From Nannocystaceae bacterium ST9 (lineage in GTDB: Bacteria > Myxococcota_A > Polyangia > Nannocystales > Nannocystaceae), in NCBI GenBank assembly GCA_048320885.1, contig JBLWFJ010000001.1, positions 1,349,642-1,413,641 of the forward strand: 64,000 bases of DNA, written 5' to 3'. The position numbers and the translations under genes were made by a program. Shown in pieces: positions 11,192 to 36,542 of this stretch; the first letter of the stretch is position 1, and each line of letters starts with the position of its first letter. The notes under the pieces are model-generated. The model saw only the letters and a list, made by a program, of their open reading frames with translations, was not told the origin of the DNA and did not search any database.

Positions 11192-11199
11192 GGCGTTGA

Positions 11200-14068: not shown

Positions 14069-14187
14069 CGACGCAAATGTCCGAGTGGCGCCGTTCGTGC
14101 GGCTATCGCCGCGAGAACGGCCGTTCGCACCATGGCAGAGATGTCGCGGGAAGGGCGGGCGCGGGTCTGGGACACTGGGCCTCTACC

Positions 14188-15969: not shown

Positions 15970-17682
15970 ATGCGACCCCTACTCACGATCTCTTCGTTAT
16001 CGACCCTCGCGCTCGGCCTCGGCCTCGCGCTCGCGCCCACGCCCGCCGACGCCTGCGGCGGGACCTTCTGCGACGGCGGCGGACCGACGGTGATGCCCGT
16101 CGATCAGACCGGCGAGAACATCCTGTTTTGGATCGATCACTCGGGCACGGAGCCGCACACCGAGGCGCACATTCAGATCCAGTACGAGGGCGAGGCGCAG
16201 GACTTCGCGTGGATCATCCCGGTCCAGCAGGTCCCCGAGGTCCTGGTCGGCAACCAGGCGCTCTTCGACAACCTGCTCGCCGCGACCGTCCCGACCTTCA
16301 CGATCACCACCACCAGCCAGACCTGCGACGACGGCTCGGTCGGGCTGTGTGCCGCGCGGGCCGAGGACAGCCAGTTCGCCGACGACGAGGCCGGTGACAT
16401 TGGCGGCGACGAAGGCGACACCGGCGACGGGACCGGCGGGCCCGAGATCCTCGATCGTGGGTTCGCGGGCGCCTTCGAGTACGTCGTGCTGACCGGCGAC
16501 TCCGTCCAGGAGATCGTCGACTGGCTCGACATGGCCGGCTACGCCCAGGACGACGACGCACCCCCGATCCTGCAAGAGTACCTCGACGACGACTTCGTGT
16601 TCGTCGCCGTCAAGCTGCGCGGCGGCGTCGACGTCGACGAGATCCATCCGCTCGCGATCCGCTACCCCGGCGTCGAGCCCTGCATCCCGATCAAGCTGAC
16701 CCGGATCGCCGCCGTCGACGACATGGCCATCCGCGCGTTCTTCCTCGGCGAGTCGCGGGCCGCCCCGATGAACTGGCCGCACGTGGTGCTCAACCCGGTC
16801 GCGTTCGATTGGGTCAACACCGCCAGCAACTACCTCGAGGTCGCCTCGCTGGCGATCGACGAGGCCGGCGGGCGAGCCTTCCTCACCGAGTACGCCGGCA
16901 TCGACGACATCGTCTCGACCAGCGGGGTCGACAGCCCGGCTTGGAACCCGAGCGCGTTCGAGGCGATCGAGCCGGTCGACGTCGTCGACGAGCTGACCAG
17001 CCAAGGCCTGGGCCTGACCTGCGACCCGTTCTCGAACGTGTGCAGCTTCGGCCACCCGCAGGTCGAGCCGCTGCTCGCCAAGTACCTGCCGGCCCCCGAT
17101 GGCGTGGACCCCTACGAATTCTGGGGCTCGCTCGCGTCCTACGAGGGCCTGATCGACCTCGCCGCCTGGTCGGGCACCGGCTTCGCCACCGACTTCGCCG
17201 AGCGGATCTCGACCCCGGGTCAGCACGCGATCGAGATGCTCGAGAGCGCCTCCTACCTGACCCGCCTGATGACCCTGCTCTCCCCGCACGAGATGATCGA
17301 GGACCCGACCTTCCACGAGACCGACTCGCTGCCCACGCTCGGCAACCAGTTCTCGGCCACGCGGACGATCGCCTGCGAGACCAACGACTGGGTCGACCTG
17401 CCCGACGAGCGCCAGGTCGCGCTGACCAACGGCAGCCTCTACCCCAGCATCGAGGGCATGCCCTTCGCCGAACGGATCGAGCAGATCCCGGCCATGGGCC
17501 CTGCCCAGATCACCACCGACAACCGCGCGACGATCGACGACCTGCTCGCCGACTGGAACGCCGGCAAGCTCTCGGGGCCCGAGCCCGGCTGCGCCGTCAC
17601 CCGCCTGCGGGCCGAGGCGCTGCTGACCATGCTCGCGCTGTTCGGGATCGCCGGGGCGACCCGCCGTCGGCGTCGGGGATGA
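15970..17682 (+). CDS. DUF2330-domain secreted protein, copy 2 (tandem paralog), with MYXO-CTERM-like tail
   Basis: MRPLLTISSLSTLALGLGLALAPTPADACGG...; C-terminus GCAVTRLRAEALLTMLALFGIAGATRRRRRG. Long blocks are nucleotide-identical to copy 1. Confidence 0.7.
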   Translation: MRPLLTISSLSTLALGLGLALAPTPADACGGTFCDGGGPTVMPVDQTGENILFWIDHSGTEPHTEAHIQIQYEGEAQDFAWIIPVQQVPEVLVGNQALFDNLLAATVPTFTITTTSQTCDDGSVGLCAARAEDSQFADDEAGDIGGDEGDTGDGTGGPEILDRGFAGAFEYVVLTGDSVQEIVDWLDMAGYAQDDDAPPILQEYLDDDFVFVAVKLRGGVDVDEIHPLAIRYPGVEPCIPIKLTRIAAVDDMAIRAFFLGESRAAPMNWPHVVLNPVAFDWVNTASNYLEVASLAIDEAGGRAFLTEYAGIDDIVSTSGVDSPAWNPSAFEAIEPVDVVDELTSQGLGLTCDPFSNVCSFGHPQVEPLLAKYLPAPDGVDPYEFWGSLASYEGLIDLAAWSGTGFATDFAERISTPGQHAIEMLESASYLTRLMTLLSPHEMIEDPTFHETDSLPTLGNQFSATRTIACETNDWVDLPDERQVALTNGSLYPSIEGMPFAERIEQIPAMGPAQITTDNRATIDDLLADWNAGKLSGPEPGCAVTRLRAEALLTMLALFGIAGATRRRRRG

Positions 17683-17689
17683 GCCGAGG

Positions 17690-17716
17690 GCTCTCCGCGG
17701 CGAGCCGCGGAGAGAG
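17690..17716 (+). terminator. GC hairpin after the DUF2330 copy 2
   Basis: ctctccgcgg-cgag-ccgcggagag, a perfect 10-bp stem 8 nt after the stop. No clear U-tract follows. Confidence 0.35.
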
Positions 17717-17815
17717 CGGCGTTCGCTATCCGTCGCCAGCGCCGTGTGAACGGGCTCTCGCACCTTCGCCGACGCCACTCCCGGACCGCCTCCAACTCCG
17801 ATAGCATCGTGCCGC

Positions 17816-18355
17816 ATGGTCCATCCGGTCCAGAGCGTGGTCGAGTCGCTCTACGCCGCCGGGCGCTGCCCACGGCTGCACGTCAACGCGACGTGCGAGG
17901 GCGTCGTGTGTCCCGACTTCATCCGCGAGCAGTGGCAGGAGCGTCTGATCATCGATCTCGACGCCACCTACCCGCTCGACCTCTCGTTCACCGACGAAGG
18001 CATCGGAGCCGACCTCTCGTTCGGCGGCTACGTGACCCGCTGCGCCTTCCCCTGGAAGGCGATCTACGTGGTCGCCGATCGTGCCACCGGCCGCGGGATC
18101 GTGCTCGACCAGAACATGCCCGAGTCGGTCCGCCGCAGCCGTCACCAGCCCGTGACCGGCCCGCTCCCGCCCGGCGCCGAGCTGCGGCCCGCGCCCGCGC
18201 CCGAGCCCGACATTCGTCCGGCTCGCGTGAAGCCGGCCCAGCCGATCGCCAAGCCCAGCGCCGTCCCGCAGAGCTCCGCGTCGAGCGGCTCCGGGCACGA
18301 AGGCGAGGCTCAGCGCCGCCGGGCCGCGTTCAAAGTCATCGACGGCGGAGGCTGA
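17816..18355 (+). CDS. Putative ClpXP adaptor SspB-like protein
   Basis: RLIIDLDATYPLDLSFTDEGIGADLSFGGYVTRCAFPWKAIYVVADRATGRGIVL fits the SspB core pattern (...N..P.A...LEL....V.F.ARF.G......VP..A.LAIYA.ENG.G), with a disordered Pro/Ala tail. Confidence 0.45.
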   Translation: MVHPVQSVVESLYAAGRCPRLHVNATCEGVVCPDFIREQWQERLIIDLDATYPLDLSFTDEGIGADLSFGGYVTRCAFPWKAIYVVADRATGRGIVLDQNMPESVRRSRHQPVTGPLPPGAELRPAPAPEPDIRPARVKPAQPIAKPSAVPQSSASSGSGHEGEAQRRRAAFKVIDGGG

Positions 18356-18358
18356 CGC

Positions 18359-18661
18359 GTGTCCTCGGGCAAGATCGCCGGGCTGATCGTGTCGGGGATC
18401 GCCGTGGCGATCTTCGTGTTTTGGTGGGTGATGGTCCGGGCTCCCAGCCCGCAGGCGATCTGCAAGCACAAGATCCAGCTCGTGCTGAACGAGGTGCCGC
18501 AAGATCAGCAGGTCGGGGCCGACGCGCTGATCATGCAGCTCGAGCTGCGCTGCGTCGAGGCGGCCGAGAAGAAGATCCAGTTTCGCGGCAAGCTCGTGTA
18601 CGCCGAGTATGCCCGCTGCGTCGCGGCGGCCCAGACCCTCGGCGAGGCCGAGCGCTGCTGA
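18359..18661 (+). CDS. Small membrane protein (hypothetical)
   Basis: GTG start 4 nt after the SspB-like stop. One TM (IAGLIVSGIAVAIFVFWWVMV) and a coiled C-terminus. Confidence 0.4.
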   Translation: MSSGKIAGLIVSGIAVAIFVFWWVMVRAPSPQAICKHKIQLVLNEVPQDQQVGADALIMQLELRCVEAAEKKIQFRGKLVYAEYARCVAAAQTLGEAERC

Positions 18662-18676
18662 GGCATCCTCTCCCGC

Positions 18677-19444
18677 GTGCCCTTCGCCCCTGCCCTGCTC
18701 GCCGCGACGCTCGCGGTGGTGTTCCTCGCCGCGCTGGTCCGCACGACCTGGGGCTTCGGTGACGCGGTCGTGGCGATCCCGCTGCTGAGCTTGCTGGTCA
18801 GCATGCAGGTCGCCTCGCCGATGCTGGTGATGGTCAGCATCGTGCTCTCGCTGCTGCTCTTGCGCCGAGGCATGAGCCTGCTCGACTTCGGCGTGATCGC
18901 CCGGCTCCTGCTCGGAGCGCTGGCCGGCATCCCGCTCGGGCTGCTCGTGCTGACCGACCTGCCCGAGTCGCTCGCGCGCAAGGGCCTGGGCGGCGTGCTG
19001 CTCGGGTTCGCGATCTGGTCGCTGATCCGCGCTCGCCGAGCGAAGCCCGCGCTCGCGCGCGAGCCCACGCCACCGCTCGCGCTGGCCAAGGCGCTCCCGC
19101 TCGACCTCGGGTTCGGCGTGCTGGTCGGCGCATGCAGTGCGGCCTTCGACATCTCCGGCCCGGTCTTGCTGATCCACGCGACCGCCCGGCGATGGACGCC
19201 CGAGCAGCTGCGCATGAACTTGCAGGCCGTGTTCCTGCCGCTCGGGTTGCTGACGATGACCGGCCACGCGCTCTCGGGCCTGTGGACGCGCGACGTGCTC
19301 CTGCTCGCGGCCTGGTGCCTGCCGGTGGTGATGCTCGCGCGAGTGTTCGGCGAGCGGCTGCGGGTCCGACTCGAAGGCCAGCGCGGGGTGGTCGTGCTCT
19401 ACCTGCTGATCTTCGCGCTCGGCGTGCTGATGCTCGCGGTCTGA
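18677..19444 (+). CDS. TSUP-family (TauE/SafE) anion exporter
   Basis: 255 aa, about 8 TM helices with the internal two-fold repeat typical of TauE/SafE. Confidence 0.75.
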   Translation: MPFAPALLAATLAVVFLAALVRTTWGFGDAVVAIPLLSLLVSMQVASPMLVMVSIVLSLLLLRRGMSLLDFGVIARLLLGALAGIPLGLLVLTDLPESLARKGLGGVLLGFAIWSLIRARRAKPALAREPTPPLALAKALPLDLGFGVLVGACSAAFDISGPVLLIHATARRWTPEQLRMNLQAVFLPLGLLTMTGHALSGLWTRDVLLLAAWCLPVVMLARVFGERLRVRLEGQRGVVVLYLLIFALGVLMLAV

Positions 19445-19545
19445 GCGGATCTTTATGCGTTCTTGATCCCCGCCGGCCCGCTTCCGCATGCCGGCCCGAC
19501 ACCGCGCCGCCCAGGCCCGACTACGCTGCGCGCCGGAGACCCTGG

Positions 19546-19688
19546 CCATGCCCGAACTCGAAGTCGTGCTCGAGCGCCTCGTCGGCGTGATCGTGCTCGT
19601 GATGCTCGTGACGCTCGCCCTGCTCGCGACCGTGTCGATCGTCTGGACCCTGGCCAGCGACGATCACGAGCAAGACCGGCTCGGGTGA
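19546..19688 (+). CDS. Possible 47-aa single-TM peptide upstream of the KdpD-type kinase
   Basis: Internal Met MPELEVVLERLVGVIVLVMLVTLALLATVSIVWTLASDDHEQDRLG, with GGAGA 8 nt upstream. Confidence 0.25.
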
Positions 19689-19704
19689 GCGAAGATGGTC
19701 GCGG

Positions 19705-20821
19705 CATGCCGACGCGCACCCCCGCTCGCGTTCCGCTCGTGCTCGAGTTCGTGCTCGCGTTGGTGGTCGTCGCCGCGGTCAGCCTGGTCGCGCTGCTGCT
19801 CGAGCCCTTCCTCGCGCAGACCGACCACGTGATGCTCTACCTGCTCGGGGTGATCGCGGTCGCGTTCCGAGCCCGGCGTGGCCCGGCCTTGCTCGCCGCG
19901 GTCGCGAGCGTGGCGGCCTTCGACTTCCTGTTCGTCGAGCCGCGCTTCACCTTCGCGATCAGCGACACCCGCTACCTGCTGACCTTCGCGGTCATGGCGA
20001 CGATCGGCGTGGTCGTGGTCTCGCTGGTCGCCGAGGTCCGCAAGCAGGAGCGCGTCGCGTTCGAGCGCGAGGTCGCGGTTCAGGGCGAGCGGCTGCGCTC
20101 GGCCTTGCTGGCCTCGGTCTCGCACGATCTTCGCACGCCGCTCGGGGCGATCCTCGGGGCCGTGACCACGCTCGAGCAAGATCGCGAGAAGCTCGATCCC
20201 GGCGTGCAGACCAGCTTGCTGGCCAGCATCCACGACCAGACCGAGCACCTCAACCGACTGCTGCGCAACCTGCTGGAGATGACCCGGCTCGAGGGCGGCG
20301 CGGTCGTGCTCGCGCGCGAGCTGGCGGCGATCGAGGAGCCGATCGGCACGGTGCTGGCCTCGCTGACCCACCGGATCGGCGATCGGCGGATCGAGGTCGA
20401 GCTCGACGCGGTCGAGGGGCCGCTCTTCGCGACCTTCGATCCGATCGCGGTCGAGCTCGTGCTCAGCAACCTGATCGAGAACGCGCTGCGCTACGGCGGC
20501 GATCCGATCGAGATTCGAGCGGCGCGCGAGGGCGATGCGATCGCCGTGCGCGTGCTCGACCGTGGGCCCGGGCTCGATGAACACACGCTCGCCCACGCGT
20601 TCGAGAAGTTTCAGCGCGGGCTGGTCGGCGAGCGCAAGGGCGGCCCGGGCTCGGGCGGCGCCGGGCTCGGGCTGGCGATCGTCCGCAGCCTGGTCGAGGC
20701 CAGCGGCGGGCGCGTGTGGGCCCGCAACCGCGACGACGGACGGGGAGCCGAATTCGGGTTCACGCTCCCGCGCGCCGAGCTGCCGATCTTGCCCGAGGGG
20801 CTCCCGGAGGACTCGCCATGA
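19705..20821 (+). CDS. kdpD: Sensor histidine kinase carrying only the KdpD-type C-terminal half (4-TM DUF4118-like region + HisKA + HATPase), no KdpD-N/Usp domains
   Basis: MPTRTPARVPLVLEFVLALVVVAAVSLVALLLEPFLAQTDHVMLYLLGVIAVAF... (KdpD membrane domain), then SHDLRTPL H-box and N/G boxes. The stop overlaps kdpE (ATGA). Confidence 0.75.
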
Positions 20822-21519
20822 CCGAGCTGCGCCCGACCATCCTGGTCGTCGAAGACGAGCCGCAGATGCGCCGCTTCCTGCGGGCGCTGATCGGCAGCCA
20901 CGGCTACGCGCTGGTCGAGGCCGAGACCGGCCGCGAGGCGCTCGCGCTGGCGGCCAGCCATCGCCCCGATCTGATCGTGCTCGACCTCGGCCTGCCCGAC
21001 GTCGACGGGCTCGAGCTGGTCGGCAACCTGCGCGGCTGGACGCAGACGCCGATCATCGTGGTCTCGGCGCGCGGGCAAGAGCAAGACAAGGTCCGCGCGC
21101 TCGATCTCGGCGCCGACGACTACCTGACCAAGCCGTTCGGATCGCACGAGCTGCTCGCCCGGATCCGCGTGGCCCTGCGCCACGCCGCCCACGTCGGCGA
21201 GCAGGACGGCCCGGTGTTTCGCTCGCACGGCCTGATGGTCGACCTCGCGGCCCGCCGAGTCGCGCGCGGCGACGACGAGGTCCACCTGACCCCGCTCGAG
21301 TACAAGCTGCTGACCACGATGATCGAGCACGCCGGCAAGGTGCTCACGCATCGCCAGCTGCTCGAGCGCGTGTGGGGGCCCGCGCACGCCGACGACACCC
21401 AATACCTGCGCGTCTACATGGCCCAGCTGCGCCGCAAGATCGAGGCCGATCCGGCCCGGCCGCGGCTGCTCAAGACCGAGACCGGCGTCGGCTATCGGCT
21501 CGAGGTCGACGAGGGTTGA
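20818..21519 (+). CDS. kdpE: OmpR-family response regulator KdpE
   Basis: ILVVEDEPQMRRFL, DLIVLDLGLPDVDG, winged-helix C-terminus (LTPLEYKLLTTMIEHAGKVLTHRQLLERVWG). Confidence 0.85.
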   Translation: MTELRPTILVVEDEPQMRRFLRALIGSHGYALVEAETGREALALAASHRPDLIVLDLGLPDVDGLELVGNLRGWTQTPIIVVSARGQEQDKVRALDLGADDYLTKPFGSHELLARIRVALRHAAHVGEQDGPVFRSHGLMVDLAARRVARGDDEVHLTPLEYKLLTTMIEHAGKVLTHRQLLERVWGPAHADDTQYLRVYMAQLRRKIEADPARPRLLKTETGVGYRLEVDEG

Positions 21520-21649
21520 GGCTTGCAACTCGCACGATCGCGATCACTGGGGCTCGCGATTCGCAGGGCCTCGCGAACCCGCATCGGCGCGAGACCCAGA
21601 CCCAGCCAGCCGAGCCGCGCTGGCACGAGCGATGCACGGCGAGCGGGGC

Positions 21650-21754
21650 ATGCAGATCCTCGTGTTTCTCGCCATCGGCTGGGTCGCCTACGCGGCTTGC
21701 CTGGCCATCCTGCCCGCGATCGATCGCGTCGTTCATGAAGGAGTCGGGCGATGA
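21650..21754 (+). CDS. 34-aa hydrophobic sORF overlapping the kdpF start (ATGA)
   Basis: MQILVFLAIGWVAYAACLAILPAIDRVVHEGVGR, with a weak GGGG SD. Possible leader or accessory peptide; not in the ORF track. Confidence 0.25.
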   Translation: MQILVFLAIGWVAYAACLAILPAIDRVVHEGVGR

Positions 21755-21831
21755 CCTGGATCTCCGCCGTGTGTGCCGGGCTGGCGTTCGGCTACCTGCT
21801 CTTCGCGATCTTGCGGCCCGAACGATTCTGA
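21751..21831 (+). CDS. kdpF: K+-transporting ATPase subunit F (26 aa)
   Basis: MTWISAVCAGLAFGYLLFAILRPERF matches the KdpF consensus (...GYLVYALL.PE.F). Not in the ORF track. Confidence 0.7.
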   Translation: MTWISAVCAGLAFGYLLFAILRPERF

Positions 21832-21844
21832 ACCGGAGACCACC

Positions 21845-23515
21845 GTGCACGACCTCGTCTACGCCTTCGCGCTGCTCGCCGCAGCGCTCGCGCTGTCCTG
21901 GCCGCTCGGGCGAGCCATGGCCGCCATCGCCCAACCTCCACGCAGCCAGCCCGACCGGCTCGATCGCGCGATCGTCCGGGTGCTCGGACCGGCCGCGATC
22001 GCCGAGCAGACCTGGAAGAGCTACGCGCTCGCGCTGCTCGGGTTCAACGCGCTGATGTTCACGATCACCTACGCGATCTTGATCTTGCAGGGCTCGCTGC
22101 CGCTCAACCCGGCCGGCAAACCCGGGCTCGAGCCCTCGCTGGCGTTCAACACCGCGATGTCGTTCGCGACCAACACCAACTTGCAGCACTACTCCGGCGA
22201 GGTCGCGCTGTCCTACTTCTCGCAGCTGTTCGGGCTGACCTGGCTGCAGTTCGTGTCGGCCGCGACCGGCATCGCGGCGTTGGCCGCCATCGCGCGAATG
22301 CTCGGTCCGAGCGGCGCCGTCGGCAACTATGCCCGCGATCTGATCCGCTTCACCCTGCTGATCCTGCTGCCGCTCGCGCTGGTCGTCGGCGCCACGCTGA
22401 TCGTCGCCGGCACACCGATGACCTTCGCCGGGCCGGTCGAGCTGACCACGCTCGAGGGCGACTCGCAGACGATCGCTCGCGGACCGGTCGCGGCGATGGT
22501 CGCGATCAAGCAGCTCGGGACCAACGGCGGCGGCTACTTCGGCCCCAACAGCACGCACCCGCTCGAGAGCCCGAGCTTCTTCACCTGCTCGCTCGAGAAC
22601 CTGTCGATCCTCGTGGTCTCGATGGCCTGCCTGTGGATGTTCGGCCGACTGATCGGGCGGATGCGCGACGCCTGGCTGCTCTTCGCGGTCATGGCCGCGC
22701 TCTTCGTGGCCATGGTGATCCCGGCCGTGCTGCTCGAGGCCCAGCCCAACCCCGGCCTCGCCGATCTGCCGATCGTCGAAGCCCGCGGCAACCTCGAGGG
22801 CAAGGAGCTGCGCTTCGGCAGCGCGGCCGGCCCGGTCTGGGCGGTGACGACGACCGCGACCAGCAACGGCTCGGTCGCGGCCATGCACGACAGCCTCAAC
22901 CCGCTGACCGGGCTGCTGCCGATGATCGGCATGTGGCTCAACGTCAGCTACGGCGGCGTCGGGGTCGGGCTGATCGGCATGCTGCTCTACGTGGTCGTCG
23001 CGGTGTTCATCGCCGGGCTGATGGTCGGGCGCACGCCCGAGTATCTCGGGCGCAAGGTCGAGGTCCGCGAGATGAAGCTGGCCGCGCTGGCCTTGCTGCT
23101 GCATCCCTTGCTGATCCTCGGTGGCACCGCATTGTTCGTGGCCACGCCCCTCGGGACCGAGACCATGTCCAACCCGGGCAGCCACGGGTTCTCGCAGGTG
23201 CTCTACGAGATGAGCTCGGCCGCGGCCAACAACGGCTCGGGCTTCGAGGGCCTGGCCGACAACACCACGCCCTGGAACCTGATCACCGGGCTGTGGATGT
23301 TCCTCGGTCGCTACCTGCCGATCGTGCTGCCGCTTTCGATCGCGGCCTCGCTCGCCCGCAAGCAACGCGTACCCGAGAGCGCCGGCACGCTGCGAACCGA
23401 CTCGCCGACCTTCGCGCTGGTCCTGCTCGGCTGCGTGGTCCTGCTCGGCGCGCTGCTCTTTCTTCCCGCCGCCGTGCTCGGCCCGATCGCCGAACACCTG
23501 GAGATGACCCGATGA
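21845..23515 (+). CDS. kdpA: Potassium-transporting ATPase subunit A
   Basis: GTG start 14 nt after kdpF ([18 protein letters not shown]...). 557 aa with KdpA selectivity-filter-like repeats. Confidence 0.85.
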
Positions 23516-25572
23516 ACGAACCCATCACGCGGCGAGCGAAGACTCGCTCGTTGGTCACGCCCGAGCTGGCCCGCGCCGCGCTGCGCGAGTCGGTGATCAT
23601 GCTCGACCCCCGACGAATGGCCCGCAACCCGGTGATGTTCGTGACCGAGGTCGGGGCCCTGCTGAGCACGATCGCGGCCGCGCTCGCGCTCGGCTCGGGC
23701 GACGCCGGCTTCCCGATCACGATCTCGATCGTGCTGTGGCTGACGGTGCTGTTCGCCAACTTCGCCGAGGCGCTGGCCGAGGCGCGCGGCAAGGCGCAGA
23801 CCCAGGCGCTGCGAGCCACTCGCACGCAGACCGAGGCTCGTCGGCGGCGCGACGACGGCACGATCGAGTCGGTCGGGTCGACCGAGCTGCGCAAGGGCGA
23901 CGTGATCGTCGTCGCGCTCGGCGAGCTGATCGCCGCCGACGGCGAGATCATCGAGGGCGTGGCCAGCATCGACGAGTCGGCGATCACCGGCGAGTCGGCG
24001 CCGGTCGTGCGCGAGGCCGGAGGTGATCGCTCGGGCGTGACCGGAGGCACCCGCGTGCTCTCGGACTCGATCGTCGTGCAGGTCACCGCCGCGCCCGGCG
24101 ACTCGTTCCTCGATCGAATGATCGCGCTGGTCGAGGGCGCGCAGCGGCAAAAGACGCCCAACGAGATCGCCCTGACCGTCACGCTCGCCGGGCTCACGCT
24201 GGCGTTCTTGCTGGTCACGGTCTCGCTGGTCCCGATGGCCGCCTACTTCGACGCGACCATCGACATCCCGACCGCGGTCTCCCTGCTGGTCTGCCTGATC
24301 CCGACCACGATCGGCGGGCTGCTGGCGGCGATCGGGCTGGCCGGCATGGATCGGGCGTTGGCCGCCAACGTGCTGGCCAAGTCGGGCAAGGCGGTCGAGC
24401 TGGCCGGCGACATCGACACGGTCCTGCTCGACAAGACCGGCACGATCACCCGCGGTAACCGGCAAGCCACGCATCTGTATGCGGCCGGGACCTTCGAGGA
24501 GCGCGAGCTGGCCGAGGCCGCCATGTTGGCCTCGCTCGCCGACACGACCCCGGAGGGCCGCTCGATCGTCGGGCTCGGCGAGGGCCTGCTCGGGCGGCGG
24601 CCGAGCGAGCCGCTCGGGGCCAAGCCGATCAGCTTCTCGGCCCAGACCCGGCTCAGCGGGATCGACCTCGCCGAGGGCACGAGCATCCGCAAGGGCTCGG
24701 TCGACGCGATCGCCAAGTGGTTGATCGAGCATGGCAGCTCGCTGCCCGACGCGGTCCGCACGATGACCGAGGCGATCGGCCGCGAGGGCGCGACCCCGCT
24801 GGTCGTCGTGAGGGCGCGACCCGGCCAGGCCGCGCACACGCTCGGCGTGGTCCAGCTGACCGACGTGCTCAAGCCCGGGATCGCGGCTCGGCTCGCCCGC
24901 CTGCGCGCGATGGGCCTGCGCGTGGTCATGGTCACCGGCGACAACCCGCTGACCGCCAAGGCGATCGCCGGCAAGGCCGGGGTCGACGACTTCATCGCCG
25001 AGGCCACGCCCGAGGACAAGCTGGCCTACATCCGCCGCGAGCAGGCCGAGGGCCGGCTGATCGCGATGATGGGCGACGGGACCAACGACGCGCCCGCGCT
25101 CGCCCAGGCCGACATCGGCGTGGCCATGAACTCGGGCACCCAGGCGGCCAAGGAGGCCGGCAACATGGTCGATCTCGACAGCGATCCGACCAAGCTGATC
25201 GAGGTGGTCGAGATCGGCAAGCAGCTGTTGATGACCCGCGGCGCGCTGACGACCTTCTCGATCGCCAACGACGTCGCCAAGTACTTCGCGATCGTGCCGG
25301 CGCTCTTCGTCGCCGCGCTGCCGCAGCTGGCCGCGCTCGACGTGATGGCCCTCGGCTCGCCGCGCAGCGCGATCTTGTCGGCGGTGCTCTTCAACGCCAT
25401 CGTGATCCCGCTGCTGGTGCCGATCGCCCTGCGGGGCGTTCGCTACCGGCCCGAGGGCGCCGACAAGCTGCTGCGCCGCAACTTGCTGATCTACGGGCTC
25501 GGCGGGGTCGCGGCGCCCTTCGTCGGGATCAAGCTCTTCGACCTCGCGCTCGCGCTGATCGGGATGCCATGA
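23512..25572 (+). CDS. kdpB: Potassium-transporting P-type ATPase subunit B
   Basis: DKTGTIT phosphorylation motif, [20 protein letters not shown]. Start overlaps the kdpA stop (ATGA). Confidence 0.9.
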
Positions 25573-26153
25573 CCAGCTTCACGTCCACGCTTCGAATCCT
25601 CTCGGGTCTCACGCTCGGCACGCTCGCGCTGGTCGGCGCCTACGCGCTGATCTTGCTCGGCGTCGGGCTCGGCCTCGCGCCGGCGGCCGCCGAGGGCTCG
25701 CTGATCCGCGGGCCCGAAGGCGAGCTCGTCGGCAGTCGCCTGGTCGGCCAGTCGTTCACCGAGCCCGGCTACCTGTGGCCGCGGCCCTCGGCGGTCGACC
25801 ACGCCGCGGACGCGGCCGGCGGCAGCAACCTCGCGGCCAGCAACCCGGCCCTGCGCGAGCGAGTGCTCGCCGACCTCGCTCGCCATGCGGCCAGCGACGA
25901 GCGACCGATCCCCGCCGATCTCGTGACCGCGTCGGGCTCGGGCCTCGACCCCGACATCACGCTGGCCGGCGCGCTCTACCAGGCCCCGCGGATCGCCGCC
26001 GCACGCCGGGTCGATCGCCACGAGATCGAAGAGCGGCTGCGCTCGCTCGCCCACACGCCCAACCCCTGGTCGCCGCCGCTGATCAACGTGCTCGAGACCA
26101 ACCTCGAGCTCGATCGCACCTTCGGCGCGCTCCCGACGAGGCCGGCGGAATGA
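25569..26153 (+). CDS. kdpC: Potassium-transporting ATPase subunit C
   Basis: 194 aa, N-terminal [12 protein letters not shown] motif. ATGA overlaps on both sides. Confidence 0.85.
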
Positions 26154-27292
26154 GCCCGACGGATCGCGCCGAGGACTTCCTCGCGCTGGTTCGTCGGGCT
26201 CGCCAAGGTCGGCTCAAGCTCTTCCTCGGGCCCGCGCCCGGCGTCGGCAAGACCTACCGGATGCTGCAAGAGGCCCAGCAACTGAGCGCGACCGGGGTCG
26301 ACGTGGTCATCGGCGTGATCGAGACCCACGGACGACCCGAGACCGCGGCGCTGATCGAGGGGCTCGAGCAGGTGCCGATGCGGCGGATCGAGTATCGCGG
26401 GGTCGGCCTCGACGAGCTCGACCTCGACGGCGTCCTCGCCCGCGCGCCCGAGATCGCGCTGATCGACGAGCTCGCGCACACCAACGCGCCCGGCAGCCGC
26501 AACCGCAAGCGTCACCAGGACGTGCTCGATCTGCTCGAGGCCGGGATCCACGTGTTCGCCACGCTCAACGTCCAACACCTCGAGAGCCTCAACGACCTGG
26601 TCTCGCGCAGGGTCGGCGTGCAGGTCCGCGAGACCGTGCCCGACGTGTTCCTGCGCCGCGCCGATCAGATCGTCAACATCGATCTGCCGGCCGAGGATCT
26701 GCTCACCCGCCTGCGCGCGGGTCGGATCTATCCGCTCGAGCGGGTCGAGCGGGCGCTCGCCAACTTCTTTCAGGCCGGCAAGCTCGAGAGCCTGCGCGAG
26801 CTGGCCTTGCGCGAGGTCGCCGAGTCGATCGAGCGGGCCCAGCAGCGCGAGCGCGAGGTCAGCGGAGAGCGTGTGGGCCGAGTCGCGCTCAGTCGGCTGA
26901 TGGTCGGGCTCTCGAGCTCGCCGAACGCCGCGGCGCTGCTGCGTCGCGCGTCGCGACTGGCCGGTCGACTCAACGCGCATTGGTTCGCGGTCCATGTCCA
27001 GACCCGACGCGACGCGCCCGATCGGATCAGCGCGACCGACCAGCGCCGCCTGTTCGAGGCCCAACAGCTGGCGGTCGACCTCGGCGCGGAGGTCCAGGAG
27101 CTCGAGAGCGACGACGTGATCGCGGCGCTGATCGACTTCGCCAGCGCGCATGGGGTCTCGGACATCGTGATCGGGGCTCCGCCGCCGACCCACCCGATCC
27201 TGGCGTGGTTCACCCGCAGCGTCGCCCGGCGAATGCTCGACCACGCCAACCGCTTCAACCTCCACGTGCTGGCCACGGAGGTCTCGCCATGA
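26150..27292 (+). CDS. kdpD: Stand-alone KdpD N-terminal sensor domain + Usp domain protein (no TM or kinase domains)
   Basis: RGRLKLFLGPAPGVGKTYRMLQEAQQLSATGVDVVIGVIETHGRPETAALIEGLE... matches KdpD-N (PF02702) closely, then a Usp-like domain. Ends 380 aa in, with ATGA overlap into the next kinase gene. Confidence 0.8.
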   Translation: MSPTDRAEDFLALVRRARQGRLKLFLGPAPGVGKTYRMLQEAQQLSATGVDVVIGVIETHGRPETAALIEGLEQVPMRRIEYRGVGLDELDLDGVLARAPEIALIDELAHTNAPGSRNRKRHQDVLDLLEAGIHVFATLNVQHLESLNDLVSRRVGVQVRETVPDVFLRRADQIVNIDLPAEDLLTRLRAGRIYPLERVERALANFFQAGKLESLRELALREVAESIERAQQREREVSGERVGRVALSRLMVGLSSSPNAAALLRRASRLAGRLNAHWFAVHVQTRRDAPDRISATDQRRLFEAQQLAVDLGAEVQELESDDVIAALIDFASAHGVSDIVIGAPPPTHPILAWFTRSVARRMLDHANRFNLHVLATEVSP

Positions 27293-29109
27293 CGCTGCGG
27301 ATCAAGCTCTTGCTCGCCCAGCTGCCCATGCTGCTGGCGACCGCGCTGACGATCGCGGTCGCGATGCTGGCCGCGCGTCGCTTGGGCGGCGAGCCGGACG
27401 CGATCATCGAGGAGAACTTTCGCAGCTTCGATGCCGCACGCGCGATGCTCACCGCGCTCGAGCGGATCGACGCCGAGCTGACCCGCGGCGCGCTGGTCGG
27501 TGAGCCGCCCGATCCCGCGAGCGTCGACGCGGCGGTGGCCGAGTTCGAGGCGCCGCTGGCGATTCAGCGGGACAACGTCACCGAGCCCGGCGAGCACGAG
27601 GCGACCGCCGAGCTGGTCGCGGCTTGGCAGCGCTACCGAGCCGAGCTGCCGCTCGAGCCCGGCGCGAGCCTCGAGGATCACCGCGCCCGCTCCGACCAGC
27701 TGCGCGATCGAATCGAGGTGATCTTCGCGATCAACCGCGCTGGCATGCGCAGCAAGGCGGACGCGGCTCGCGTCGAAGCTCGCCGCGAGACGATCGTGAT
27801 CGCGGCGACCGGACTGATCGCGCTGGCCGTCGCGCTGCCCTTCGGCGTCGTCCTGGTCCGTCGACTGCTGCGCCCGGTCAAGGTCATGGCCGCGACCGTG
27901 GCCCGGCTCGCCAGCGGCGACTTCGACGTCCGAGTTCGGCTCGAGGGTCGCGGCGACGACGAGGTCCATCGCTTGGCGCTCGCGTTCAACGAGATGGCCG
28001 AGCGGCTCGGGGCCTATCGCGCCAGCTCGCTCGGTGATCTGCTCGAGGCCAACCTGCGCATGCAGTCGGTCGTCGACAGCCTGCCCGAGGCCGTGCTGGT
28101 CTGCGACACCGCCGGGGTCGTGGTTCAGGCCAATGTTTCGGCGCATCGGCTCTTCGGTGAGCCGACCAGCCTCGCGCGCCTGCCCAGCTCGATCGCCGGC
28201 CCGGTCCGCGCGGTGTTCGATCGCGTGGTCCGAACCGAGCGGGCCAGCGAGTGGGCCGGGATCGCCGACGCGCTGGCCTTCCCGCGCGGGACCGAGGTCG
28301 TGTGGCTGGCCGTCGGCGCGACCCCGGTGCTGCGTGACCAACGGTTGGCCGCGGTCACGCTCGCGCTGCGCGACGTCAGCCAGGCCCGTCGACTCGAGGG
28401 CTTTCGCGGCGACCTGGTCTCGGCCGCCGCCCACGAGCTGCGGACCCCGCTGACCTCGCTGCACATGGCCGTGCATCTGTGCCTGGAGGAGGCCGCCGGC
28501 CCACTCGACGATCGCCAGAAGGATCTGCTGACGGCCGCGCGCTCCGACTGCGAGCGCCTGCAGTCGGTCGTCGACGAGCTCCTCGATCTCGCGCGGGCCG
28601 AGGCCGGCACGATCCGGCTCGAGCTGCGCCCGCTGGTCGTGCAGTCGGTCCTGCACGAGGCGCTCGCCCGCCACGAGCTCGACGCCGAGCGCCAGGGCGT
28701 CACGATCGTCGTGGTCACGCCCGAGGCCGGCCTGCGCGTGCTCGCCGATCGCTCGAGGCTCGCGCAGGTGTTCGACAACCTGATCACCAACGCGCTGCTG
28801 CACGCCGCGGGCGTCCGGCGGATCGAGCTGGGCGCCGAGCAGGTCGGCGAGCGAGTCCACTTCCGGGTCGACGACGACGGCCCCGGCATCCCGCTCGAGC
28901 TTCGGCCCCGCGTGTTCGACAAGTTCGTGCGCGGACCCGCGACCGAGGCCGAGGGCACCGGGCTCGGGCTCAGCATCGTTCGCGATCTCGTGCGAGCGCA
29001 TCGCGGCGAGGTCGGGGTCGACGACGCGGCGATCGGCGGCGCGCGAGTGTGGTTCGAGCTGCCGACCGCCGCGGACGGCGGACCGATCCACGACATGCTC
29101 GCGCCGTGA
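27289..29109 (+). CDS. Sensor histidine kinase (TM sensor, HAMP, PAS, HisKA, HATPase) coupled to kdpD-N
   Basis: 606 aa, N-terminal TM-flanked sensor domain, then AAAHELRTPLTSL H-box, N/G boxes. Confidence 0.8.
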   Translation: MTLRIKLLLAQLPMLLATALTIAVAMLAARRLGGEPDAIIEENFRSFDAARAMLTALERIDAELTRGALVGEPPDPASVDAAVAEFEAPLAIQRDNVTEPGEHEATAELVAAWQRYRAELPLEPGASLEDHRARSDQLRDRIEVIFAINRAGMRSKADAARVEARRETIVIAATGLIALAVALPFGVVLVRRLLRPVKVMAATVARLASGDFDVRVRLEGRGDDEVHRLALAFNEMAERLGAYRASSLGDLLEANLRMQSVVDSLPEAVLVCDTAGVVVQANVSAHRLFGEPTSLARLPSSIAGPVRAVFDRVVRTERASEWAGIADALAFPRGTEVVWLAVGATPVLRDQRLAAVTLALRDVSQARRLEGFRGDLVSAAAHELRTPLTSLHMAVHLCLEEAAGPLDDRQKDLLTAARSDCERLQSVVDELLDLARAEAGTIRLELRPLVVQSVLHEALARHELDAERQGVTIVVVTPEAGLRVLADRSRLAQVFDNLITNALLHAAGVRRIELGAEQVGERVHFRVDDDGPGIPLELRPRVFDKFVRGPATEAEGTGLGLSIVRDLVRAHRGEVGVDDAAIGGARVWFELPTAADGGPIHDMLAP

Positions 29110-29164
29110 TCGTCCGGCCACGGATCCCTTTACGGCGTGCACCTCGCTCAGTAGCCTCGCCCGC

Positions 29165-30514
29165 GTGGACGAGCTCGAGCCGCCGCTGACCAAGACCCAT
29201 CGCGCCGCGCTGGCCATCCACGCCGAAAAACGCCCGGGTCGACTGAAGCTGCGCTTGGTCGACGGGCCGAGCGGGTCGACCGACTTCGAGCTGACCAAGC
29301 CGACGATTCAGGTCGGCCGAAGCCCGATGGCCGACCTCGTGATCGACGAGCGCTCGATCAGCAAGATCCACTTCGAGCTGCGCCTGGCCGGGGGCGGCGT
29401 CGACCTGCGCGACCGCGAGAGCACCAACGGTTGCTGGCTGCAGGGTTGTCGAGTCTTCCACGCGCGCTTGCGGGTCGGCGACTCGTTCCGCGCCGGCGAC
29501 CTCCAGTTCATGATCGTCGGCGTCGACGAGGTCGACGTCGTGGTCACCTTGGCCCCGCGCTGCGGCGCGCTGCAAGGCGCGAGCGTGGTGATGCGCGAGC
29601 TGTTCGCGTCGATCGACGCGCTCTCGCTCGCGCCGCTCGACATCCTGATCCTCGGCGAGACCGGCACCGGCAAGGAGCTGACCGCCCGCACGCTTCATCA
29701 GCTCTCCGAGCGCCGATCCAAGCCCTTCGTGACCCTCGACTGCGGCGCGATCTCGGCCTCGCTCGCCGAGGGCACGCTCTTCGGGTTTCGCAAGGGCGCG
29801 TTCACGGGCGCCGACCATGATCAGCCGGGCGTGTTCGAGGAGGCCAACCGCGGGACCATCTTCCTCGACGAGATCGGCGAGCTCGTGCCCGAGCTGCAAG
29901 TCAAGCTGCTGCGAGTGCTCGAGCGACGCGAGGTCACCCGCATCGGCGAGCCGGCCAAGCCGCGAGCGCTCGACATCCGGGTCGTCGCGGCCACGCATCG
30001 CGACTTGCGGCGCGAGGTGGCCGAGGGCCGCTTCCGCGAGGATCTGTTCTATCGCTTGGCCCGCGGCCTGATCACGCTCCCACCCCTGCGCGAGCGTGGC
30101 GAGGACATCCTCATGCTCGCCGACGATTTCCTGGGCAAGCTGCGCGACGAGTTCGGCCGCGACGTCCGAATGAGCGCCGCGTGCAGGGACGCGATGCTGC
30201 GGCATCCCTGGCCCGGCAACGTCCGCGAGCTGCGGAACTGCATCGAGCAGGCCTTCCACATCAAGCGCTCGGGCGAGCTCGCGGCGAGCGACCTGCGACT
30301 CGGCACCCTGGCGTGGAAGAGCCAAGGCACGTCCGAGCTGGCCGACGCGACCAAGACCTACGCCGACGCCCACGTCGCGCTGGACAAGGTGTTCTTGGCC
30401 AAGGTGCTCGAGAGCACGAGCGGCAACCTCTCGGAGGCGGCCCGCCGACTCGGCCTCAGCCGCGACACGCTGCGAGTCAAGCTGAAGGCCGCTCGGCTCT
30501 ACCCCGACGGCTGA
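29165..30514 (+). CDS. FHA-domain sigma-54-dependent transcriptional activator
   Basis: N-terminal FHA ([26 protein letters not shown]), GETGTGKE Walker A, GAFTGA motif, C-terminal HTH. GTG start. Confidence 0.85.
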
Positions 30515-31265
30515 GGGATTCTCGTCACCTGTCGCGCCGTCATGGTTCCGGCACGATCGTGAGCCAGACATCGACCGGTTCGTGCAACACGTCGACGCGC
30601 CAGACCCCCGAGTGCTCGAAGTCCACGATCGAGTAGTCGTCGACCAGCGTGAAGAACACCGGCTGGCGAACTCGCTCATCGAGGGCCTCTTGCTCGGTCG
30701 CTGGGTTTTCGGCCAGACAGCGCTCGTACCAGATCACCAGCCCCTCGGAGCGCTCCAGCCGGTAGGTCCCGGGCTCGGGCATGTCGATCAGGAAGCTCTG
30801 ATACATGTCCGTGGAGCCGTTGGCCTCGTTCTGATTGGTCTTCTCGTAGGGCCCGAGCGTGGCCTCGTCCTCACAGTCGAACTTCGCCTCGAACACCCAG
30901 CCACCTTCCGCTCGGGCCTCGAGCAGCAGCATGTCGGCGCACTGCCGATGTTGAATCCACATCGCCGGCGACTGGCTCGCGTAGTCCGTCGCCAGCGACG
31001 CTCCATACGCGGACTCCATGGCCGACCAGACGCCCTCGTCGTAGGTCGCGGTCCGGTAGAGCGCCGCAAATTCCTCCGGGCCCAATTGCTCGGCCAGCCA
31101 ACGCGTGAAGTGGCCTGCACGAGAATAGAAGGGGCCGAAGTCGCTCGAGTGGACCTCGGAAAACTCTCGCGGATCGGACAGCGATTCGTTGATCGAAGGC
31201 TCGAAGCTGACGGCGAGGCCCTCGGCCAAGATCGAGGGGGCACCGGTTCGAATCTCGCATGCGAC
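30514..31265. repeat. Segmental direct repeat, copy A (~750 bp)
   Basis: Near-identical to 31840-32590; identity ends at ...ggttcgaatc. Confidence 0.85.
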
Positions 31266-31673
31266 TCCGTGCGCGAGCTCGTGGTATGCGGTCCATGGCG
31301 TCGCGAACACGACCCCGTCGCGGCTGGTACATGCCGCCGCATCGGGGTTGGAGCAGTAGTCTTCGATGTCTTTGATCGCGTAGACCGGCACTCGCCTCTG
31401 AACGTCGATCCCGAGTTGGTCGGCCACGTACTGCACGTGGCGCTCGTAGTCGATCACCGACCCGGCACAGAGGAAGCGGTTTGGACCGATGTGGACATCG
31501 AGGTGCTCGGTCTCGTAGCTCACCGGGAGGTCCGGCACGTCCGAGACGATCTCCTCGAAGTCCAGACAAGTGAGCGGTCCCTCGGGCTCCGGGTCATGAG
31601 TCTCGTTGCATGCCAGGCTCAGCGCTCCCGCCAGTCCAAGGCTGACACGTCGGATGCAGTGGCGTTCGAGCAT
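30540..31673 (-). CDS. Lipoprotein with HExxH motif (putative zinc metallopeptidase-like)
   Basis: Internal Met MLERHCIRRVSLGLAGALSLAC (lipobox) and AYHELAHG. The 3' ~730 bp are duplicated at 31840-32590. Confidence 0.6.
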   Translation of the reverse strand: MLERHCIRRVSLGLAGALSLACNETHDPEPEGPLTCLDFEEIVSDVPDLPVSYETEHLDVHIGPNRFLCAGSVIDYERHVQYVADQLGIDVQRRVPVYAIKDIEDYCSNPDAAACTSRDGVVFATPWTAYHELAHGVACEIRTGAPSILAEGLAVSFEPSINESLSDPREFSEVHSSDFGPFYSRAGHFTRWLAEQLGPEEFAALYRTATYDEGVWSAMESAYGASLATDYASQSPAMWIQHRQCADMLLLEARAEGGWVFEAKFDCEDEATLGPYEKTNQNEANGSTDMYQSFLIDMPEPGTYRLERSEGLVIWYERCLAENPATEQEALDERVRQPVFFTLVDDYSIVDFEHSGVWRVDVLHEPVDVWLTIVPEP

Positions 31674-31839
31674 GACCGCTCCAGTAAAGCACGCCCTTCT
31701 GGGCATCCTCCATCGCCATCCTCACGTCGAACATGCTGCGAGTCGAGCTGAAGCCCGAGGGATTCTTGGTCGGAGGCTGACGAACGACTCGTCGACCTTC
31801 GTTGTTCGGACCAGATGCGCCGCGCGAGCGCCCGAGCGG

Positions 31840-32590
31840 CGAGGGATTTCTCGTCACCTGTCGTGCCGTCATGGTTCTGGCACGATCGTGAACCAGACAT
31901 CGACCGGCGGCCCATGTTCGTGCAACACGTCGACGCGCCAGACCCCCGAGTGCTCGAAGTCCACGATCGAGTAGTCGTCGACCAGCGTGAAGAACACCGG
32001 CTGGCGAACTCGCTCATCGAGGGCCTCTTGCTCGGTCGCTGGGTTTTCGGCCAGACAGCGCTCGTACCAGATCACCAGCCCCTCGGAGCGCTCCAGCCGG
32101 TAGGTCCCGGGCTCGGGCATGTCGATCAGGAAGCTCTGATACATGTCCGTGGAGCCGTTGGCCTCGTTCTGATTGGTCTTCTCGTAGGGCCCGAGCGTGG
32201 CCTCGTCCTCACAGTCGAACTTCGCCTCGAACACCCAGCCACCCTCCGCTCGGGGTTCGAGCAGCGGCATGTCGGCGCACTGCCGATGTTGAATCCACAT
32301 CGCCGGCGATTGGCTCGCGTAGTCCGTCGCCAGCGACGCTCCGTAGGCGGACTCCATCGCCGACCAGACCCCCTCGTCGTAGGTCGCGGTCCGGTAGAGC
32401 GCCGCAAACTCCTCCGGGCCCAATTGCTCGGCCAGCCAACGCGTGAAGTGGCCTGCGCGATCGTAGTAGGGGCTGAATTCGTCCAAATGGACCTCGGAAA
32501 ACTCTCGAGGATCGGACGGCCACTCGTTGATCGAGGGCTCGAAGCTGACGGCGAGGCCCTCCGTCAAGATCGAGGGCGCCCCGGTTCGAA
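31840..32590. repeat. Segmental direct repeat, copy B (~750 bp)
   Basis: Near-identical to 30514-31265. Confidence 0.85.
31869..32590 (-). pseudogene. 5'-truncated duplicate of the HExxH lipoprotein gene (no signal peptide or HExxH)
   Basis: ORF 31869..32771 is identical to gene 30540..31673 from IRTGAPSIL onward. Upstream of the breakpoint the frame reads the antisense of another gene (S/T-rich, atypical composition). Confidence 0.45.
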
Positions 32591-34997: not shown

Positions 34998-35024
34998 CAA
35001 GAAGCCATAAAGAGGCGCGGCGGT

Positions 35025-36295: not shown

Positions 36296-36542
36296 GGCGG
36301 CGGTGTGCGGCTGGGCGGCCTTGCGTGCGGCACGAGGGATTCGCGTGACCCGGTCGCGCGGCAGCTTGATGCGCGAACCGAACAGGGCGGCGAGGAAGTC
36401 GAGCACGGCGGCTCGGCTTGTAGCAGGCGCCCGCGAGACCCGAAAGCAGCGCGGGCGAAGTGAGCGAAGGCCCCCGCGAGCCCGGTCGGGGACGGCTTGC
36501 GTGGTGTTGATACCGCCGGCTGCGCAAGTCATCCTCGCGGCC

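Follow-up and report, generated by a model that had tools for sequence, protein, structure and literature searches.

Regulation of the Kdp K+ pump is a textbook two-component paradigm built on KdpDE of E. coli. In that system, KdpD is a single polypeptide, the kdpDE genes lie downstream of kdpC, and KdpE directly activates a sigma-70 promoter. Here we describe the kdp locus of Nannocystaceae bacterium ST9, which is contained in a 64-kb stretch of DNA with a G+C content of approximately 70% (the whole of this stretch is referred to as the window). The ST9 locus shares with E. coli the pump subunits, a KdpE-type regulator and the layout of the KdpE site, in which two T-rich hexamers are spaced 11 bp apart. 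In contrast, E. coli Kdp has neither the sigma-54 input predicted for ST9 nor the small open reading frame (ORF) that precedes the ST9 pump genes.

A split KdpD is a layout already published for Deinococcus and cyanobacteria, and a 2024 survey covering Myxococcota describes it as well. In D. radiodurans, kdpBAC is followed by kdpD-N, and a separate kinase corresponding to the C-terminal half of KdpD is encoded with a regulator immediately upstream (PMC5716572). Truncated kdpD genes of a similar kind are known in cyanobacteria (PMC5716572), as was also stated in an earlier note on the ST9 sequence. In the 2024 study (PMC11018627), the KdpD N-domain was shown to be an atypical serine kinase, which phosphorylates KdpB at S162 and thereby inhibits the pump. 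That study also reports from a survey of 5495 species that serine-kinase and histidine-kinase chains can be separate, and counts Myxococcota with the phyla in which short KdpD predominates. The commonest form of the split kinase, TM/GAF/DHpCA, is used here as the standard of comparison for split KdpD. KdpD is also modulated by PtsN, which is known to bind a Kdp sensor kinase in E. coli, P. putida and rhizobia, and ptsN2 genes are found within rhizobial kdpDE clusters (PMC13104625). The serine-kinase finding of 2024 left a question, namely how kdp is transcribed in the many phyla that have short KdpD only.

We propose that the kdp genes of ST9 are probably subject to three layers of control: a sigma-54 system formed by the kinase HK2 and the response regulator RR54, a KdpD-N protein acting as a brake, and an overlying cascade that starts from the kinase HK1 and KdpE. 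The proposal is built on what the sequences show: the genes and domains present, their catalytic motifs, their orthology and synteny, and conserved DNA motifs. Nine genes are arranged in the order HK1-kdpE-sORF-kdpF-kdpA-kdpB-kdpC-kdpD-N-HK2, all on the plus strand, and their positions agree with the earlier note. Matches to Pfam and NCBIfam profiles, on which all domain calls are based, confirm the content of HK1, KdpD-N and HK2. The locus reaches past the coordinates given in that note, as a sigma-54 response regulator gene and two PtsN-like genes map to 33184-35474 on the minus strand. The genes are as follows.

19706-20821, plus strand: HK1, 371 aa, with DUF4118, HisKA and HATPase_c domains and the H-box SHDLRTPL
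20818-21519, plus strand: kdpE, an OmpR-family regulator with REC and Trans_reg_C domains; ATGA overlap with HK1
21650-21754 (alternative first ATG at 21632), plus strand: sORF, a 34-aa hydrophobic peptide, MQILVFLAIGWVAYAACLAILPAIDRVVHEGVGR; ATGA overlap with kdpF
21751-21831, plus strand: kdpF; PF09604, and TIGR02115 at 28 bits (cut-off 26.9)
21845-23515, plus strand: kdpA, with a GTG start 13 nt past the kdpF stop; PF03814 at 713 bits, TIGR00680 at 628 bits (cut-off 388)
23512-25572, plus strand: kdpB, the P-type ATPase subunit, with E1-E2_ATPase and Hydrolase domains; TIGR01497 at 958 bits (cut-off 528)
25569-26153, plus strand: kdpC; PF02669 at 163 bits, above the Pfam cut-off and below the NCBIfam cut-offs
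26150-27292, plus strand: kdpD-N, a soluble protein of 380 aa; PF02702 at 306 bits (residues 19-227) followed by Usp (residues 249-367)
27289-29109, plus strand: HK2, a membrane sensor kinase with HAMP, PAS, HisKA and HATPase_c domains; ATGA overlap with kdpD-N
33184-34521, minus strand: RR54, 445 aa, an NtrC-type regulator with REC, Sigma54_activat (GAFTGA), AAA_lid_14 and HTH_8 domains
34518-34961, minus strand: ptsN1, PTS EIIA-2 (PF00359 at 84 bits), with a GTG start; ATGA overlap with RR54
35025-35474, minus strand: ptsN2, a second PTS EIIA-2 gene (PF00359 at 71 bits), sharing 78-81% nucleotide identity with ptsN1

All four subunits of KdpFABC are encoded together, as assessed by family matches. 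The earlier note had the last seven genes overlapping by ATGA, which holds for sORF/kdpF, kdpA/kdpB, kdpB/kdpC, kdpC/kdpD-N and kdpD-N/HK2 but not for kdpF/kdpA, which are separated by a 13-nt gap; a further ATGA overlap occurs at HK1/kdpE. The domains also bear out the statement that KdpD functions are divided, with a KdpD/Usp protein coming last in the pump operon and a membrane kinase of the KdpD-C type whose gene accompanies kdpE upstream.

The proteins of the window were mapped onto 80 genome loci carrying the nearest relatives of KdpD-N (41-59% identity). Related loci are labelled by L-numbers (L001 to L165); L083 and L165 are independent metagenome contigs, and L164, the closest relative, comes from the same sample as L081. 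The earlier note regarded HK2 as an extra PAS kinase and the coupling of KdpD-N to a different kinase as unusual. Neither view is sustained by the comparison: in 42 of the 80 loci (Myxococcota, Binatota and Bacteroidota), kdpD-N is immediately followed by an HK2 ortholog in the same orientation, and in 15 others (Syntrophales, Verrucomicrobiota, Planctomycetota and Aminicenantes) the ortholog is found upstream of kdpA, which makes HK2 a conserved partner of short-KdpD loci. HK2 is found downstream on the opposite strand in one locus. More than half of the 42 kdpD-N/HK2 junctions overlap (26/42), 21 by 4 nt and 5 by 1 nt. In an alignment of 52 members of the HK2 family, residues N43, T98, E102 and N149 of the periplasmic sensor and the phospho-accepting H382 are invariant. 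HisKA and HATPase domains are present in all 52 sequences, HAMP in 51, PAS in 38 and 4HB_MCP_1 in 17. Judging by these shared features, HK2 proteins are one coherent, kdp-linked kinase family.

Full-length NtrC-type regulators orthologous to RR54, composed of REC, sigma-54 AAA+ and HTH domains, are encoded in 47/80 loci. A KdpE plus HK1-like pair is found instead in 5/80, all of them Gemmatimonadaceae-like, and none of the 80 loci contains both the HK2/RR54-type and the HK1/KdpE-type systems. If any element is an addition in ST9, the comparison points to the HK1-KdpE pair rather than to HK2. In short-KdpD lineages, HK2/RR54 would be the usual transcriptional regulator of kdp.

HK2 and RR54 resemble NtrB/NtrC-type systems, the kinase in its membrane sensor, HAMP, PAS, DHp and CA domains, and the regulator in its REC, AAA+ (GAFTGA) and Fis-type HTH domains. 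They differ from such systems in that the presumed target is a K+ pump operon and the kinase gene is coupled to kdpD-N. In JGI annotation, relatives of HK2 are labelled 'NtrC-family sensor kinase KinB', and no curated NCBIfam family names the HK2/RR54 pair. A profile of the HK2 family searched against PDB sequences matched the cytoplasmic HAMP/PAS/kinase part, leaving sensor residues 1-175 unmatched. A metagenome scan with HK2 yielded distant kinases only, the best at 32% identity. A separate search with HK2 returned the protein cluster P0201 (7 members, 417 aa, HAMP and PAS only), whose architecture is that of an HK2 remnant in L083 described below. No paper on sigma-54/NtrC-type control of kdp with short KdpD was found in the literature, which was covered mostly without subscription journals.

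The junctions bear on the question of whether the locus is a sequencing or assembly artefact, with either a false stop splitting a fused KdpD or a chimeric locus, an explanation to which we attach practically no credence. Separate kdpD-N and HK2 genes with the identical 4-nt overlap recur across dozens of independent genomes. The stop between the two genes is genuine, and HK2 has its own membrane sensor, in line with the earlier judgement that a simple frameshift is unlikely. In the NCBI isolate genome of Nannocystaceae bacterium ST9, a single 6.98-Mb contig encodes proteins with 100% identity to HK1 and to HK2, and the locus is therefore not an assembly chimera. Moreover, synteny comparison revealed that its gene order recurs in the independent contigs L083 and L165.

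The same comparison speaks to the model of the earlier note, according to which HK1 and KdpD-N are halves of KdpD that reassemble, HK2 is extra, and KdpD-N feeds one signal to both kinases. HK1 and KdpD-N do together cover most KdpD domains, and the N-domain of KdpD is reported to work in trans on C-terminal halves of the protein. Conserved translational coupling of kdpD-N and HK2 would be in keeping with a KdpD-N:HK2 complex. However, HK2 is a conserved partner rather than an extra kinase, no HK1-like kinase is encoded in most loci featuring KdpD-N and HK2, and close relatives have HK1-KdpE on a contig other than that of kdpD-N. In addition, the serine-kinase role assigned to the KdpD domain in PMC11018627 needs no histidine kinase. 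We consider this model distinctly unlikely.

RR54, which had been missed in the earlier note, came to light when the kdp-linked regulators of L001 and L004 were used as queries against the window. Over the entire length of RR54, identity to the kdp-linked regulators of L001-L006 is 56-59%. Identity to the regulator next to HK2 in L164 reaches 80%, and the HK2 proteins of ST9 and L164 are 79% identical. These matches identify RR54 as orthologous to the regulator that accompanies kdp and HK2 in relatives. From the conserved adjacency and the matching divergence (79% and 80%), we infer that HK2 and RR54 are a cognate pair, in which HK2 would phosphorylate RR54. The periplasmic four-helix-type sensor of HK2 presumably reports K+ or ionic status.

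The stretch between HK2 and RR54 contains an FHA-domain sigma-54 activator gene, two paralogous genes without family match and one further ORF.

29165-30514, plus strand: FHA-domain sigma-54 activator with FHA, AAA+ (GAFTGA) and HTH_8 domains, 56 nt after HK2

The FHA activator was considered as the partner of HK2 and rejected, as it lacks a receiver domain and is without counterpart in related loci, the ortholog of the conserved regulator being encoded at 33184-34521. None of the 80 related loci encodes a homolog of its FHA domain, and the activator is absent from L083, L164 and L165; its membership in the kdp system is uncertain. The two paralogs (30540-31706 and 31869-32771, minus strand) stem from a recent tandem duplication (30508-30877 and 31837-32215), in which 300 nt are 100% identical and the flanking 71 nt are 89% identical.

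Two candidate DNA elements are found in the region between kdpE and the sORF.

21621-21636, plus strand: sigma-54 promoter-like element, TGGCACGAGCGATGCA, with -24 GG and -12 GC, 14 nt upstream of the sORF ATG
21522-21536, plus strand: candidate RR54 activator site, the palindrome CTTGCAACTCGCACG (consensus CTTGC-N5-GCAAG), starting 99 nt upstream of the -24 element

Both strands of the 64 kb were searched with the pattern TGGCAC-N5-TTGCW. The element TGGCACGAGCGATGCA has one mismatch to this pattern, and two such sites occur in the window against 0.83 expected. It falls on the correct strand in the 130-nt gap between kdpE and the sORF (230 bp between kdpE and kdpF), and the chance of finding a site in this gap on that strand is, by our arithmetic, of the order of 10^-3. 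Sigma-54-like elements occupy the equivalent position upstream of the sORF in L002-L006, L164 and L165, the match being perfect in L165. The other sigma-54-like site in the window, TGGCACTTCGATGGCA (11577-11592, minus strand), lies about 720 nt upstream of a gene for an 892-aa protein with CarboxypepD_reg repeats (8176-10854).

The palindrome occurs at the matching place in L001, L002, L004, L005, L006, L164 (98 nt upstream) and L165, and in three of these seven loci it is the sole match in the whole locus. A -24/-12 promoter with an upstream palindrome at a distance of approximately 100 bp is a feature that ST9 shares with NtrB/NtrC-type systems. The operon sORF-kdpFABC-kdpD-N-HK2 would thus start at the sigma-54 promoter at 21621-21636, and RR54 would bind the palindrome at 21522-21536 to activate it.

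L083, the HK1 of which is 78% identical, has retained TauE, the small ORF, HK1, kdpE, the sORF, kdpFABC and kdpD-N, and lacks RR54. Its HK2 gene (17494-18747) encodes a 417-aa sensor-HAMP-PAS-DHp remnant in which the phospho-accepting His is replaced and the ATPase domain is missing. The palindrome is deleted, and the promoter is degenerate, its -24/-12 spacing being destroyed. In L083, loss of the regulator coincides with loss of its presumed DNA sites. Since this locus shows that the sigma-54 arm can be lost, one may ask whether the arm is a decaying relic in ST9 also, where inserted genes have displaced RR54 from HK2 and kdp could be driven only by read-through from HK1-KdpE. This is highly improbable: in ST9 the H-box and ATPase domain of HK2, the receiver Asp, GAFTGA motif and HTH of RR54, the promoter and the palindrome are all intact, and HK2 and RR54, at 79-80% identity to the L164 orthologs, show no sign of decay.

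Comparison with relatives places the conserved start of the sORF at the second ATG, position 21650. Of the 43 related loci that have a recognised kdpF, 42 feature a small hydrophobic peptide ORF immediately before it; they belong to Myxococcota, Binatota, Verrucomicrobiota, Gemmatimonadota, Syntrophales, Aminicenantes and Bacteroidota. The peptide is typically 27 aa long, with the consensus MxDLxxxLxxxxFFALxxxYxRxCxxL; examples are L004 700-792, L018 5365-5439, L036 5171-5254 and L053 3518-3598. The sORF peptide has no family match in Pfam or NCBIfam, and may be either a leader peptide or a hitherto unrecognised peptide associated with Kdp.

The second layer of the proposed control is KdpD-N, a protein without membrane, GAF or kinase domains, which ends after the Usp domain (Pfam), and of which residues 11-374 match the full KdpD model of NCBIfam. 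Its Walker A motif G-X5-GKT (GPAPGVGKT) and Walker B DE (LIDELAH), as defined in PMC11018627, align to the solved KdpD N-domain 2R8R. The ITGES sequence of KdpB aligns to residues 158-162 of E. coli KdpB (6HRA), and the regulatory S162 is conserved. In both respects ST9 resembles D. geothermalis, the short KdpD of which, as described in the same study, likewise comprises KdpD and Usp only, features Walker motifs, is encoded downstream of kdpC and coexists with KdpB S162. By analogy with the proteins described there, KdpD-N most likely acts as a serine kinase that shuts off KdpB. KdpD-N would be made in fixed proportion with the pump, and would phosphorylate KdpB Ser162 to stall the pump once K+ returns. 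Region I of the ST9 Usp domain reads SSS-X20-WFAVH and was compared with the c-di-AMP-binding SXS-X20-FTAXY of the S. aureus type. The ST9 sequence fits the E. coli type better, so c-di-AMP control cannot be assumed. ST9 differs also in that kdpD-N is translationally coupled to a histidine kinase gene, a coupling not found in the main-text passages of PMC11018627.

The third layer involves HK1 and KdpE. HK1 has no KdpD-N, Usp or GAF domain according to Pfam, and among NCBIfam families it is matched best by KdpD PRK10490, with 233 bits in two stretches against 130 for the next family. HisKA begins 11 residues past DUF4118 with no GAF match in between, and relatives at 41-49% identity carry GAF. 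Outside its own clade, the nearest relatives of HK1 are TM/GAF/kinase 'KdpD' proteins. D. radiodurans offers a similar arrangement, in which KdpD-N comes last in the pump operon and a KdpD-C-like kinase and an OmpR-type regulator form a separate upstream pair. There, however, the pair is divergent and a second two-component system is not described, whereas the ST9 pair is co-directional with kdp, HK1 has no GAF, and the locus additionally features HK2/RR54, a predicted sigma-54 promoter and PtsN paralogs.

Two candidate KdpE boxes and a small ORF accompany the HK1-KdpE arm.

19450-19467, plus strand: candidate KdpE box 1, TCTTTATGCGTTCTTGAT (TTTATG-N5-TTGATC), upstream of small ORF-HK1-kdpE in a conserved non-coding block
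34996-35013, minus strand: candidate KdpE box 2, TCTTTATGGCTTCTTGAT, ahead of the ptsN1-RR54 operon, with its end 34 nt before the start codon of ptsN1
19548-19688, plus strand: ORF for a small membrane peptide of 46 aa, preceded by KdpE box 1 and followed by HK1

Exactly two perfect copies of the box are present in the 64-kb window, and shuffled sequences yielded none even when up to two mismatches were allowed. Boxes of this type are located upstream of HK1 in L081-L088 and L165, and upstream of ptsN-like genes in L081, L082, L086 and L087; a box with two mismatches precedes RR54 in L165. The box is read as a putative KdpE site because its 6-5-6 layout is that of the E. coli KdpE site TTTATA-N5-TTTACA and because TTTACR-N5-TTTATG repeats lie upstream of sORF-kdpF in the Gemmatimonadaceae loci that have KdpE only. 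HK1 and KdpE would act through the boxes upstream of their own operon and of ptsN1-RR54, and the position of these boxes suggests a cascade. KdpE may raise its own level as well as read-through into kdpFABC, and may set the level of the sigma-54 activator and of a PtsN-like modulator, in a cascade or feed-forward arrangement. No KdpE-type box is found in the gap between kdpE and the sORF, and no terminator-like site was found there; KdpE would therefore act on kdp indirectly. Hydrophobic peptide ORFs occupy the position of 19548-19688 in L083 (9776-9979), L084, L085, L088 (9895-9984) and L165 (1804-1911), and the 46-aa single-helix membrane peptide could be a small-protein partner of HK1.

These data can also be read differently, with HK1-KdpE as a general regulator of K+ homeostasis that merely lies beside kdp, and HK2/RR54 as the sole control of kdpFABC, with no cascade. 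HK1-kdpE-ptsN is indeed found without kdpFABC nearby in close relatives at 84-87% identity (L081, L082, L086 and L087), and HK1-kdpE lies near a porin, PtsN and TrkH/TrkA genes in L088. In agreement with such a role, the kdpE-sORF gap has no KdpE box, and the kdp genes of L164 are accompanied only by HK2/RR54. However, HK1-kdpE immediately precedes kdpFABC in the same orientation in the window, in L083 and in L165, thus in three lineages, and is the sole intact regulator remaining in L083. A perfect KdpE box precedes ptsN1-RR54, and no terminator follows kdpE. We therefore regard a general regulator without a cascade as unlikely, and retain the layered control proposed above for ST9.

In L165, both systems flank kdp as in ST9, with HK1 at 59% and HK2 at 48% identity (48-59% across the proteins). 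The combination of a sigma-54 system and a KdpD-C/KdpE pair in one locus is unusual, by the comparisons made here, and recurs in at least one other lineage. On the same grounds, the double arrangement is recurrent but not universal in this group. L165 also features, between kdpA and kdpB, a gene for a 105-aa TPR-domain protein (5879-6196).

As in rhizobial kdpDE clusters, genes of the PTS EIIA-Ntr type are found inside the kdp regulatory locus of ST9, and the phosphorylatable His of the LALPH motif is kept in the products of both ptsN1 and ptsN2. In contrast to rhizobial ptsN2, the ST9 genes are two tandem paralogs, one of which is in an operon with RR54 behind a KdpE-type box. PTS EIIA-2 genes are also found directly after kdpD-N in L011 (approximately 11222-11617), L046 (approximately 3130-3558) and L049 (approximately 11183-11617), in Syntrophales, Hydrogenedentes and Aminicenantes, so that the PtsN-Kdp linkage extends beyond proteobacteria. 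Immediately upstream of ptsN2 is a gene (35483-36697, minus strand) for a CxxCxxCC-domain protein with a lysine-rich tail, KKFQKKKAKKKKK, and this gene pair is kept in L083.

BBP2-type beta-barrel porin genes are located beside kdp or HK1-kdpE in L164 (2659-4140), L165 (11834-13072), L088 (13077-14258) and L085 (12093-13026). Upstream of the ST9 locus, two tandem DUF2330 paralogs (14065-15930 and 15970-17682) are followed by an SspB-like gene and a gene for a TauE-family membrane protein.

Rfam searches of the window at gathering thresholds gave no match, and hence no ydaO-type c-di-AMP riboswitch ahead of kdp; a tRNA search of the window was likewise negative. A sigma-70 consensus scan of 19300-30700 revealed no promoter. 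The two terminator-like matches in the same interval are no more than expected by chance, and one is in fact the T-rich KdpE box.

Several considerations weigh against the three-layer reading. Every protein-DNA link, every protein-protein link and every sensed signal in it is deduced from sequence. The rpoN gene lies outside the 64-kb window, and RR54 is separated from HK2 in ST9 by approximately 4 kb of unrelated genes. The palindrome was derived by eye from the sequences in which it was then counted, and is thus a post hoc phylogenetic footprint rather than an independent test; the KdpE-box motif was obtained in the same way. A search for the strict sigma-54 consensus upstream of kdp in the Binatota, Verrucomicrobiota and Bacteroidota loci gave nothing convincing, and the promoter is therefore claimed for Myxococcota only. 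The kdpE product has KdpE as its best NCBIfam match (285.7 bits, approximately 87 above the next family), and this score is below the 325-bit equivalog cut-off. KdpD-N scores 349 bits against NCBIfam KdpD_non_kinase (NF038185), below the 550-bit cut-off; NF038185 is an exception-type model that probably covers a narrower clade, and KdpD-N is filed under the short KdpD/Usp architecture, not as a member of NF038185 itself. Serine-kinase activity is demonstrated for the E. coli and D. geothermalis proteins alone. The KdpD-N Usp domain better fits the E. coli-type motif RXXXR-X8-WXAVY (with H replacing Y, WXAVH) than the S. aureus c-di-AMP type. Finally, L164 has no KdpE box, and in L164/L081 the two systems are on different contigs, for which reasons the cascade is not taken to be general.

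For Myxococcota, the proposed answer to the question of how kdp is transcribed where only short KdpD is present is a HAMP/PAS kinase coupled to kdpD-N together with an NtrC-type sigma-54 activator. This answer, HK2/RR54, probably extends to Bacteroidota, Binatota, Verrucomicrobiota and others. We suggest more tentatively that HK2/RR54 and the approximately 27-aa peptide upstream of kdpF may represent an undescribed mode of Kdp control across many phyla, filling a gap in the short-KdpD phyla, for which no kinase is named in published work. As part of the same tentative picture, HK2/RR54 of ST9 would be placed beneath KdpD-C/KdpE, since KdpE would control the gene of the sigma-54 activator, giving a two-tier cascade in which pump synthesis would require two different K+-related sensors to agree. 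KdpD-N, produced in constant proportion to HK2, would brake the pump and possibly tune HK2.

ST9 and L165, which have both arms, L083, in which one is lost, and L164/L081, in which the two are unlinked, provide a natural series on the coexistence, hierarchy and replacement of regulatory systems. The conserved peptide upstream of kdpF may be an unrecognised component associated with the pump.

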